45,976 nt of DNA, taken from positions 1-45,976 of the forward strand of contig JAHQWW010000022.1 in the NCBI GenBank assembly GCA_029856365.1, written 5' to 3'. A program made the position numbers and the translations under genes. Under the pieces are notes generated by a model. It did no database searches, was not told the origin of the DNA, and saw only the letters and a list, made by a program, of their open reading frames with translations. Source of the DNA: Candidatus Hodarchaeota archaeon. Lineage in GTDB: Archaea > Asgardarchaeota > Heimdallarchaeia > Hodarchaeales > Hodarchaeaceae. This document shows, piece by piece, positions 16,668-19,545 of the stretch. How positions within the stretch are numbered: position 1 is the stretch's first letter; each line of letters starts with the position of its first letter.

Positions 16668-18131
16668 ATGTCTCTTAATCTAGAACCTTTTTTCAATCCA
16701 AGAGCAGTTGCTTTGGTTGGTGCAAGTGACAAGCTCTCAAGTTGGGGATTCATTGTTGCTCATAATATTGTGCAAAATAGTTATACGGGGGAATTTTTTC
16801 CTGTTCATCCCAATAAAAAGGAAATTTTAGGATACAAAGCCTATCCTTCTATTCTTGAAATCCCGAAAGATATACACCTTGATCTAGTGATTATCATCAT
16901 TCCTGCAAGATTTGTCTTATCTATCCTTGAACAGGCAAAACAGAGAGATGTTCATCATGTTGTTATTATCACAGCTGGTTTTAAGGAATCTGGAGAGGAA
17001 GGACGAAAATTGGAGGAGAAAATTACAACTTATGCTCAACAAAATGGTATCCGATTAATTGGACCGAATGGGATGGGTATTGTAAGCACACGGGTAAATT
17101 TAACTGCAGTAATGTGGCCTGTAGCTGGATTAAGACAAGGAGACATGGCTTTTATCTCTCAGTCAGGAAATATTGGCACGATTGGTCTCACTGTTGCTTC
17201 GAGACGAGGGATAGGTCTTAATGTATATGTTTCGGCTGGTAACATGGCAGATTTGGTAATGGCAGATTATTTAGAATTCTTTGGTAAGCATGATACCAGA
17301 ACCAAAGTTATTGGCCTTTATGTAGAAGGGATTCAAGATTCCCGGCGTTTTGTAAATTTAGTGAAAGAGATATCTAAAAGCAAACCAGTTATCATATTAA
17401 AAGCTGGAGGCACAGTTTCAGGTCGTCAGGCTGCTCTTTCTCACACAGGAGCTATAACTGGTGATGACCGAGTCTTTCGTAATATTCTAGAGAATGCAGG
17501 AGCAATAATTGTAGATTCTCTTGATGAAATGTTTGACCTTGTTCTTGTTTTCTCTCGATGGGCTGAAATGAGGTTTCCTAGAGGAAGAGTTGTTATTTTA
17601 ACAAGAGGTGGTGGTTGGGGGGTAATGGCAGCTGATGCATGCTCTAGACAAGGAATAAATTTAGAGCCATTAACCAAAAATGCGTATGAACGTATTGATG
17701 AAATTCTCCCGCCCTACTGGTCGAAAGGAAACCCGATTGATACAGTTGCTTCACTAAATTTGAACGACGTCAAAGAAATTATTAAAATTATCTTTGATGA
17801 GATGCCCTCAGTCGAAGCTATATTTCTCTTAGGAGTTGGAGGGATAGCTTATCTAGCAAATCTGGCAAAACAATCCCCTTTCATTCTTGATGAGCACAAA
17901 GATCAACTTAATTTTATTTCTGATCTAGAAGTAAATCTGTTTAAAGAAGTCATCAAGCTCTCTCGAAGTTACAACAAGCCTATTTTGATAACAACCTTAT
18001 TAACTGCTCACAATTCGCCATCAATACAATTTCTTGAGTCTCAAGATTATCCAATCTTCCCTAGTCCTACTAGAATGGTTCAAACTTTTCGTTATATGGT
18101 TGATTATTACCGTTGGCGACAAAGAATATAA
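16668..18131 (+). CDS. ADP-forming acyl-CoA (acetate-CoA) ligase alpha subunit
   Basis: FFNPRAVALVGAS, GPNGMG, SQSGN, SHTGAITG (phospho-His) and NPID. No ATP-grasp beta subunit in the window. Confidence 0.9.
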   Translation: MSLNLEPFFNPRAVALVGASDKLSSWGFIVAHNIVQNSYTGEFFPVHPNKKEILGYKAYPSILEIPKDIHLDLVIIIIPARFVLSILEQAKQRDVHHVVIITAGFKESGEEGRKLEEKITTYAQQNGIRLIGPNGMGIVSTRVNLTAVMWPVAGLRQGDMAFISQSGNIGTIGLTVASRRGIGLNVYVSAGNMADLVMADYLEFFGKHDTRTKVIGLYVEGIQDSRRFVNLVKEISKSKPVIILKAGGTVSGRQAALSHTGAITGDDRVFRNILENAGAIIVDSLDEMFDLVLVFSRWAEMRFPRGRVVILTRGGGWGVMAADACSRQGINLEPLTKNAYERIDEILPPYWSKGNPIDTVASLNLNDVKEIIKIIFDEMPSVEAIFLLGVGGIAYLANLAKQSPFILDEHKDQLNFISDLEVNLFKEVIKLSRSYNKPILITTLLTAHNSPSIQFLESQDYPIFPSPTRMVQTFRYMVDYYRWRQRI

Positions 18132-18138
18132 CTGTGAT

Positions 18139-19545
18139 TCATTGATAGAATTTTGAAATCATAGCTTGAGAAAGCAATAATAATGTACTCACATCAATAA
18201 AACCAAGACACAGTAATAAGAGTCCAATAATCAATTCGTCCTCTAGTATATCTCGACCAAGGCTTTCATAGATAGATATACCTACAAGCAATCCCCACCG
18301 GACATATTCGTCTAACTCTGATATTAACTTGGAATAAACATCCTGAAATTCCTGTTTCATAGCTTGAAGACAAGCATAGGAAAGGCCTGCAAACCGTTTT
18401 ATACGTTGATCATTCGAGTGGAAAAAGGTTTCAAACTCTTTTGCACGATCATACTCCTTATGTATGAGAATGAATGAAAATGCCCTTAACAGCACAAGAA
18501 AACGGTCAAAATTGCCAGAACCCCGTTGTTGAAGTCCTTCTTCGATGAATGTGCCCAAATCAGCAAGTGACTTTTCAGATTCCAGAAAATAACTAGCAGT
18601 AATCCCTGCTGCCTTAATATCTAAAGTATTACACTGTAATAGTGCCCTTAAAACATCTGTTACTGTTTTATTCTCCTTGAGGATGGTGGAAATTTGTTCA
18701 TAATCAGGATCTAAATCCTTAAGCCCTAATAATCGAATGAGAAAATTCTTTTGTTGTTTATTATCATTAAGAAGGGACAAATATGTTAAAATGAGTGCTG
18801 AATCTGTTCCGAACTTCGAATGGAACTCTATGCCTTGTTTTATTATTTTTTCAAGCTTTTCAACTCTAATTACTGGATCAGGGATCAAAGGAAGAAGAAA
18901 AGCAGTACAAATCATTGCAATTCTCCGACTCTCCTTATTTGATAAGTTAGGGATAATTAATTCAACTATGAAATCAAACACATTTTCCGCTTTATCAACA
19001 TTTAGAGCTGCTAGTGTAAGTCCCACTAAATAACAGTCTGGACTCCCCATCTCTGCTGGATTATAAGCTTCTAGAATTGCTGGAAGGCTATCTTTCTGTG
19101 TTTCTCGAAACTTAGCCAGAAGACCCAAGCCAATTGCGTACCCTTGCTTTACAACGAGATCAGCTTTCTTAATTTTTTTTCTAAATTCATTATAGCTCTT
19201 TTTTTGGAATTTCTTATTGTTTGAAAAAAAAGCATTCACTCCTAATGCAATTGCTGCAGTCATCCTTGTTGTTGTTAAAGGATCATTCAGAGAGTTCTTC
19301 AAGGTTTTTTCCTGCTCTTTTCCTCCTTCTGAATCCAGAAGTGTTGAAAATGCTAATCCTATTAAAGCAGCACGTTTTATTATCAAATCTTGGCTTCTTC
19401 CAGCTGCTCTCAGCTGTTTTAGCTTAAATTTTCTCTCTAACTGAGGATTAAATCCTATAGCTAATGCTAATGCCTCACGTTCAGTTGACGATCTGTTTTT
19501 TCGATACTCCTGGACAAAGACCGAAAAATCCACGTTATTTTCCAA
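18139..19545 (-). CDS. Alpha-helical repeat protein (PC/HEAT-like repeats)
   Basis: About 11 units spaced ~35-40 aa of [KR]x[GA]xxx[GA]L[GA]-like helices, e.g. KRAALIGLAF, RMTAAIALGV, KQGYAIGLGL, RWGLLVGISI. TTG start with GAGGG SD. Confidence 0.7.
   Translation of the reverse strand: MENNVDFSVFVQEYRKNRSSTEREALALAIGFNPQLERKFKLKQLRAAGRSQDLIIKRAALIGLAFSTLLDSEGGKEQEKTLKNSLNDPLTTTRMTAAIALGVNAFFSNNKKFQKKSYNEFRKKIKKADLVVKQGYAIGLGLLAKFRETQKDSLPAILEAYNPAEMGSPDCYLVGLTLAALNVDKAENVFDFIVELIIPNLSNKESRRIAMICTAFLLPLIPDPVIRVEKLEKIIKQGIEFHSKFGTDSALILTYLSLLNDNKQQKNFLIRLLGLKDLDPDYEQISTILKENKTVTDVLRALLQCNTLDIKAAGITASYFLESEKSLADLGTFIEEGLQQRGSGNFDRFLVLLRAFSFILIHKEYDRAKEFETFFHSNDQRIKRFAGLSYACLQAMKQEFQDVYSKLISELDEYVRWGLLVGISIYESLGRDILEDELIIGLLLLCLGFIDVSTLLLLSQAMISKFYQ

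Follow-up and report, generated by a model that had tools for sequence, protein, structure and literature searches.

Can an archaeon encode a closed ring of proteasome/cyclosome (PC) repeats, a fold previously solved only in eukaryotic Rpn1/Rpn2 and Apc1? The question is raised by a gene on contig JAHQWW010000022.1 of a Candidatus Hodarchaeota archaeon of the order Hodarchaeales (GenBank assembly GCA_029856365.1), which we analysed as one stretch of 45,976 nucleotides, positions 1 to 45,976 of the forward strand (hereafter the window). For the 468-aa product of this gene, the ring protein, our models predict such a PC-type ring, and we consider it probable that the protein is a soluble, stand-alone alpha/alpha toroid of PC type that acts as a dispensable protein-binding scaffold. 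Hodarchaeales are counted among the closest known archaeal relatives of eukaryotes by earlier work cited in bioRxiv 10.64898/2026.10.28.762692. Full-text literature searches returned no report of an archaeal PC toroid.

18139..19545, (-): gene of the predicted stand-alone PC-type toroid protein, 468 aa, TTG start at 19545 and stop at 18139-18141, from the open reading frame (ORF) and its translation

The ORF translates to 468 aa without internal stops. In one database record (P0002, 464 aa) the protein begins four codons later, at a GTG (window 19533-19545); we preferred the TTG at 19545 because homologues start MEN(D/E), as part of a common MEN(D/E)xxF. Invariant columns are numbered below as in P0002, whose first residue lies 4 residues into the protein as read from the TTG. 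The ratio of nonsynonymous to synonymous substitution rates (dN/dS) against four orthologues is 0.09-0.21, and the reading frame is a real gene under purifying selection. We collected 35 full-length homologues of 462-489 aa at 43-100% identity, the closest of which are named Heimdallarchaeota, Hodarchaeota/Hodarchaeales or Promethearchaeota metagenome-assembled genomes (MAGs). When 1.8 billion cluster representatives were searched exhaustively, just a handful of remoter relatives emerged, at 21-36% identity, and the named ones are Hodarchaeales. The ring protein evolves faster than its neighbours, with 47% identity where flanking proteins keep 67-80%.

We modelled the ring protein with AlphaFold2 (AF2) from a 31-sequence alignment without templates, which gave a predicted local distance difference test score (pLDDT) of 91.9 and a predicted template modelling score (pTM) of 0.92; a relative sharing 33% identity, P0039, was modelled with pLDDT 88.7 and pTM 0.91. 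We compared the models with 48,161 representative PDB chains using VIA-align, which is independent of Foldseek. The best match was spinach Rpn2 (8amz_N, chain residues 354-785; Z 18.7, root-mean-square deviation (rmsd) 4.4 Å over 384 residues) and the second was human Rpn1 (7ujd_A; Z 18.1, 4.2 Å, 375 residues), followed by a third row with Z 14.7 but an rmsd of 12.3 Å. The PC domain of Apc1 gave Z 10.2 and 5.0 Å over 349 residues (4ui9_A 1103-1607). For P0039 the top two matches were again Rpn2 and Rpn1, and both family models superpose on the Rpn2/Rpn1 toroids over 375-392 residues at 4.2-4.6 Å (Z 17.6-20.0).

Foldseek ordered its matches differently by E-value, with the PP2A scaffold PP2A-A in the lead at a template modelling (TM) score of 0.31-0.40 and an rmsd of about 20 Å. 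By TM score, Rpn2 chains reached 0.57-0.60 (rmsd 6.5-7.1 Å), compared with 0.40 or less for PP2A-A, adaptins and importins. When Foldseek's top 1000 chains were re-compared, Rpn2 and Rpn1 accounted for all of the best 50 entries, among them the crystal structure of yeast Rpn2 (4ady_A, Z 18.8). The known PC toroids, those of Rpn2, Rpn1 and Apc1, aligned over 349-392 residues at 4.2-5.0 Å, whereas open HEAT/ARM solenoids aligned either over at most 290 residues at an rmsd of 6 Å or less, or over 330-370 residues at 12-20 Å. A preliminary description of this DNA had offered a closed toroid with a structural preference for Rpn1, Rpn2 and Apc1, set against an open solenoid of PBS-lyase HEAT type. 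Both models match closed PC toroids over their full length, no open superhelix was obtained, and the predicted structures rank Rpn2, Rpn1 and then Apc1 best. We infer that the real protein, too, very probably closes into a ring.

The AF2 model of the ring protein contains 26 helices, which form 12 hairpins flanked by a short helix at the N terminus and by a terminal helix; the hairpins are spaced 29-40 aa apart and 11 of the 12 have a small-residue first helix.

18940..19500, (-): repeat units 1-5, recognisable in sequence, motif [KR]-x-x-A-x-x-[IA]-G-L-G/A, from in-register profile similarity
19393-19500, (-): unit 1
19279-19392, (-): unit 2
19165-19278, (-): unit 3
19045-19164, (-): unit 4
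18940-19044, (-): unit 5
18199..18939, (-): repeat units 6-12, degenerate in sequence, helix hairpins in the model, from AF2 helices
18820-18939, (-): unit 6
18715-18819, (-): unit 7
18628-18714, (-): unit 8
18517-18627, (-): unit 9
18412-18516, (-): unit 10
18313-18411, (-): unit 11
18199-18312, (-): unit 12

About 11 helical units had been proposed from the sequence. All 11 motifs are present, each as the first helix of a modelled hairpin; the count fell one short, having missed the degenerate hairpin of unit 8 (18628-18714), so that the total is 12. The further remark that several motifs are preceded by D-x-x-[VI] holds for 4 of the 11 (units 2, 4, 11 and 12). Unit-against-unit profile comparison of the 12 units with hhalign found units 1-5 mutually related in register (pairwise E 2e-5 to 3e-4), with weaker similarity between units 6 and 11 and between units 4 and 12, and no recognisable repeat similarity in the sequences of units 8-10. 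A profile of units 1-4 did not detect units 5-12, and a 34-position profile of units 1-5 gave chance matches only against PDB sequences (E 5.8) and cannot separate PC from HEAT repeats. The stretch of units 1-5 aligns with Rpn2 repeats 469-686. Repetition is beyond chance for part of the array and is confirmed mostly through structure.

The family's invariant polar residues are concentrated in units 6-12, most of them in the loops leading into the first helix of each unit. The invariant columns in these units are K200, R204, E236, D244, D275, D277, Y278, N302, D305, K307, D375, K379 and W413. As in solenoids generally, these loops would all point to a single rim of the ring, making that rim a candidate binding surface.

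18145..18249, (-): C-terminal hydrophobic two-helix tail (DELIIGLLLLCLGF / STLLLLSQAMISKFY), candidate axial helix pair, from AF2 helices and conservation

The last 35 residues are strongly hydrophobic and nearly invariant (invariant G437, L438-L440, L443, G444, L452 and S455), and are modelled as helices 429-443 and 446-463, of 15 and 18 residues with a two-residue joint, at pLDDT about 94. In the P0039 model the superposition on Rpn1 reaches residue 471 of 473, covering both C-terminal helices, and extends in Rpn1 up to residue 824. The original structure paper, by He et al. in 2012, is said to have the Rpn2 toroid encircling two axial helices. The tail is most likely the axial plug of the modelled ring, a burial that we infer from superposition, not from coordinates. 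Tails of like kind end other Asgard PC_rep proteins.

What the sequence says of kinship is less specific. Against Pfam cutoffs of 21 bits for PC_rep (PF01851) and 27.7 bits for HEAT_2 (PF13646), the sole signal in the ring protein is a sub-threshold HEAT_2 score of 15.2 bits, and among 31 relatives at E ≤ 1 HEAT_2 appears in 21 (best E 9.9e-6) and Cnd1 in 12. HEAT_2 does not discriminate here, and a match to it is no argument against a toroid, because Rpn2 itself scores 72.7 bits on HEAT_2. The ESM Atlas neighbours of the ring protein are HEAT-like clusters only. In a search of 5.8 billion sequences, the sole match at E ≤ 1 among proteins longer than 850 aa was a green-lineage Rpn2 (P0057, E 0.05). 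Aligned by hhalign with 17 Rpn2 sequences, the family reached 89% probability and a score of 59.8 over 212 columns in repeat register, compared with 19.2 for a reversed alignment and 18.0±2.4 for 30 column shuffles. This signal is confined to Rpn2 residues 381-800, the PC region, and pairs the window's 'NKESRRIAMICTAFLL' with Rpn2's 'DVSD-DVRRAAVLCLGFVL'.

Several observations weigh against a PC toroid akin to those of eukaryotes. PC_rep was unmatched by the 468-aa protein at E ≤ 10, was not among the families listed (25 of 37) for the 31 relatives, and in a genome-wide scan gave no match at the ring gene and none in 21 genomes of the genus (0/21). Searched against PDB sequences, the family profile found a designed alphaRep HEAT protein (E 0.024) ahead of Rpn1 (0.25) and Rpn2 (0.58). 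A generic Asgard HEAT_2 protein without a PC_rep match scored 93% and 62.5 against the family profile, on a par with Rpn2. The PC-repeat kinship expected at the sequence level by the preliminary description, to be checked against PF01851, was thus not borne out, given the lack of a Pfam PC_rep match and the like score of a generic HEAT_2 protein. In profile terms the similarity to the PC region of Rpn2 is real, not specific. Sequence cannot separate PC from other HEAT_2-like repeats because that generic protein scores as well as Rpn2; it places the ring protein in a HEAT_2/PC-like repeat superfamily without pointing to a branch, and the toroid call rests on models. The ring itself is seen in predictions only, with superposition statistics as the grounds for its closure and axial plug. 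Synteny, kept within one genus-level group only, is uninformative. Repeat proteins also converge easily and the ring gene is dispensable within its own genus, both of which temper its significance. A 2026 preprint on Asgard solenoids warns of ready convergence among repeat architectures, and names links to INTS4, adaptin/condensin and HOPS, not to Rpn1/2. Shared ancestry with the eukaryotic Rpn1/Rpn2/Apc1 PC domain and convergence of a HEAT_2-type array on a closed ring seem to us about equally likely.

We surveyed PC_rep across 399 Asgard genomes and found it above the Pfam threshold in 8, none of them in the ring protein's genus. One genome, G308, encodes two stand-alone proteins of 466 and 477 aa (L066:985-2385:+ and L074:688-2121:-) with PC_rep scores of 105 and 129 bits, where true Rpn2 scores 112 bits, and with 98% probability against the Rpn2 PC region in hhalign. 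They resemble the ring protein in length, in repeats of about 38 aa (very regular) and in a hydrophobic two-helix C-terminal tail; they differ from the window family in exceeding the PC_rep threshold and in coming from other Asgard families. A weak full-length alignment joins the window family to proteins of this type (415 columns, 56% probability), and a weak relative of the family, P0051 (E 7e-4), scores 35.6 bits on PC_rep and aligns with the family at 95.8%. On sequence grounds the two G308 proteins have a better claim than the window family to be archaeal PC toroids.

PC_rep is elsewhere fused to STAND domains (nSTAND3; one weak nSTAND5 match) or found in proteins of about 670 aa (L080:3733-6252:+ in G294, L077:3716-7108:- in G310, L081:2129-4138:- in G397 and L082:2615-4630:+ in G398). 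L080:3733-6252:+ is a STAND NTPase (nSTAND3) with a C-terminal PC_rep array, and the proteins of about 670 aa combine an N-terminal PC_rep array with a 270-aa C-terminal tail without a Pfam match. PC_rep arrays on Asgard STAND NTPases suggest a general binding module. Horizontal transfer of the ring gene from a eukaryote was judged unlikely because of the 11-12% identity and the related arrays in several Asgard families.

The ring gene is single-copy in this genome and its family is restricted to Heimdall/Hodarchaeales MAGs. Of 21 other genomes in its GTDB genus-level group, 14 carry it; a sample of 378 further Asgard genomes yielded no member, only four weak partial matches to long HEAT-rich proteins. 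Five same-genus genomes (87-94% complete) had no copy. In four loci (L061, L062, L063 and L064, from genomes G072, G059, G070 and G069) the surroundings are intact and the ring gene is missing, with the acetyl-CoA synthetase gene followed after 229-776 bp by an enoyl-CoA hydratase or CMK-like gene. The ring gene is a presence/absence polymorphism, accessory and dispensable within the genus.

Every locus with the ring gene has it convergent with the alpha gene of an ADP-forming acetyl-CoA synthetase, and upstream in all loci examined lie a CMK-like kinase, DUF6125, a TFS paralogue, a V4R-like gene and a Rab-like GTPase; the window neighbours include an archaeal TFS/Rpb9-type zinc-ribbon protein. 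The two convergent genes end 7 bp apart in the window (18131-18139), so terminators, if any, must overlap coding regions. Synteny is uninformative on function because the neighbourhood persists in genomes without the ring gene. Five relatives have, immediately upstream of the ring gene and in the same orientation, a gene for a histidine kinase of 723-773 aa (GAF-PAS-PAS-HisKA-HATPase_c):

L035:7147-9381, (+): upstream histidine kinase gene
L036:11203-13521, (-): upstream histidine kinase gene
L037:7527-9761, (+): upstream histidine kinase gene
L042:7668-9902, (+): upstream histidine kinase gene
L094:5658-7826, (+): upstream histidine kinase gene

In the window that site is a gap of just 201 bp, and no orthologue of the kinase is encoded in this genome. 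We rejected the kinase as a constant partner, since it is not present at the window and several other loci.

We also examined this genome for proteasome and ubiquitin components. It encodes one PAN (G000:C65:1610-2680; 561.8 bits), three Cdc48-like ATPases, ubiquitin (C32:13514-13711; 57.7 bits), three E2s, three JAB/MPN proteins (on C154, C91 and C36) and one PCI-domain protein, all on other contigs. A 549-aa protein (G000:C86, L006:1453-3102:-) carries a C-terminal PCI domain at residues 487-534 (35 bits, above the Pfam cutoff); domains of this kind typify the proteasome lid, CSN and eIF3. Two ubiquitin-system clusters are unlinked to the ring gene: one (G000:C32:7851-24910) comprises an E2, the ubiquitin gene (57.7 bits), a second E2-like gene and a 382-aa AAA ATPase, and the other (G000:C91:40247-42594) a JAB gene, an E2 and a weak ubiquitin-like match. 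In about 20 loci examined, no PAN, proteasome or ubiquitin-system gene adjoined the ring gene.

Four other accounts of the ring protein were weighed. An ordinary open solenoid of HEAT_2/PBS-lyase type, with the closed ring a prediction artefact, would agree with a Pfam signal limited to HEAT_2 and Cnd1, with HEAT clusters as ESM Atlas neighbours, with alphaRep at the top of the PDB sequence search and with PP2A-A first in Foldseek by E-value. We regard it as very unlikely, as two template-free models agree (pTM 0.91-0.92), low-rmsd superposition on open solenoids covers at most 290 residues compared with 349-392 on PC toroids, and Rpn2 itself is a strong HEAT_2 match. The hydrophobic, family-invariant C terminus, with its counterparts in other Asgard PC_rep proteins, would also suit a HEAT-like protein anchored in a membrane by a C-terminal hairpin. 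However, helices of 15 and 18 residues joined by two are short for a transmembrane hairpin, and the high pLDDT of the tail within a model of pTM 0.92 indicates that it packs against the rest of the protein. The tail moreover superposes on Rpn1 in the second model, and besides it the 468-aa protein has no signal peptide or membrane segment. Membrane anchoring is, in our estimate, highly improbable.

A true archaeal counterpart of Rpn1/Rpn2 would dock as a ring on the N-terminal coiled coils of PAN and receive ubiquitin or ubiquitin-like (UBL) domains, forming a primitive 19S base. Rpn2 and Rpn1 are the best structural matches, Rpn2 is the sole long sequence match, and the genome has PAN, ubiquitin, E2, JAB/MPN and PCI-domain genes. 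Yet none of the loci examined places the ring gene beside PAN, proteasome or ubiquitin-system genes, and at least five same-genus genomes lack it, four of them with intact flanks; the ring protein lacks RPN2_N, RPN2_C and the Rpn1/2 N-terminal domains; and similar Asgard rings on STAND NTPases suggest a general binding module. Both this counterpart and, more broadly, a proteasome role, to which only the modelled fold points, are unlikely. The earlier suggestion of a candidate prokaryotic relative of the 26S base scaffold stands as far as the fold goes (Rpn2, Rpn1 and Apc1 as best matches) and falls short on a functional tie, given the lack of synteny and flanking domains and the absence of the gene from several same-genus genomes. 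More doubtful still is a free-standing Hodarchaeales PC toroid, homologous to the Rpn1/Rpn2/Apc1 core, that binds to PAN and accepts clients tagged with ubiquitin or bearing a UBL domain; if true, the 19S regulatory particle would have in it a living precursor of its non-ATPase base. The ring protein might instead be a partner or output scaffold of signalling, through the histidine kinase or the neighbouring small-GTPase genes, and not of proteolysis. The kinase lies directly upstream on the same strand in five relatives, and every locus has a V4R/TRAPP-like gene and the Rab-like GTPase at a distance of 2-4 kb. We find this quite unlikely: the window and several other genomes lack the kinase at this site, this genome has no orthologue of it, and the GTPase neighbourhood is kept where the ring gene is lost, so that the linkage reflects genus-level synteny, not co-inheritance.

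We therefore return to the soluble stand-alone toroid. In this protein about 11-12 helix hairpins would curve tightly, owing to first helices rich in Gly/Ala, and close into a ring whose centre is most likely filled by the very hydrophobic C-terminal helix pair. The 468 aa comprise the ring only, with no catalytic motif and no other domain, so the protein is most likely a rigid protein-binding scaffold or adaptor, to which partner proteins may bind at the outer helices and at the conserved polar loop face of units 6-12. The protein would be accessory rather than core, and would belong with the wider Asgard PC-like repeat arrays that stand alone or form the sensor/binding end of STAND NTPases. 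A minimal stand-alone Asgard ring offers a tangible form from which the largest proteasome and cyclosome scaffolds may have arisen, and as a small, expressible protein it is suited to testing what a bare toroid binds.

Among known systems, HEAT_2/PBS-lyase HEAT-like proteins (alphaRep designs, CpcE/F, YibA) share a similar repeat motif in sequence and superpose well on local stretches, the longest about 250 residues (4xl5_C, Z 14.1, rmsd 5.4 Å; 1oyz_A, Z 12.3), but they are open arcs of 31-aa repeats and do not cover the whole ring protein at low rmsd. The Apc1 PC domain (PDB 4UI9, 5A31, 8A3T) is likewise a ring and aligns within Apc1 1103-1607 over 349-378 residues (Z 9.7-10.2, rmsd 5.0-5.3 Å). 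It is a weaker match, embedded in a 1944-aa WD40-containing scaffold; a 2017 review places it at 1013-1616 and gives Rpn1 and Rpn2 as the sole other known instances (PMC5717348). The Rpn1/PSMD2 toroid (PDB 7UJD; chain f or Z of 26S structures) aligns over 375-388 residues (Z 17.6-18.8, rmsd 4.1-4.3 Å), including both C-terminal helices in the second model, whereas the N- and C-terminal domains of Rpn1 are absent from the ring protein. The ubiquitin/UBL sites of Rpn1 are T1/T2 and NT (PMC8405992).

Rpn2/PSMD1 (PDB 4ADY; chain N or U of many 26S structures) differs from the ring protein in sequence, with 11-12% identity and PC_rep unmatched in the latter, and in architecture, since the ring protein is without the RPN2_N rod, the RPN2_C domain and the Rpn13-binding tail. 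Pfam finds none of RPN2_N, RPN2_C or RPN1_RPN2_N in it, where true Rpn2 scores 304 and 143 bits; in eukaryotes such flanking Rpn1/Rpn2 domains mediate part of docking. The ring protein is also archaeal, stand-alone and dispensable within its genus. The two are alike in small-residue-rich first helices, in a profile match in repeat register across six repeats and, as modelled, in a ring of about 11 helix-turn-helix repeats that is collinear over about 385 of 464 residues, with Z up to 20.0 and an rmsd of 4.3-4.5 Å.

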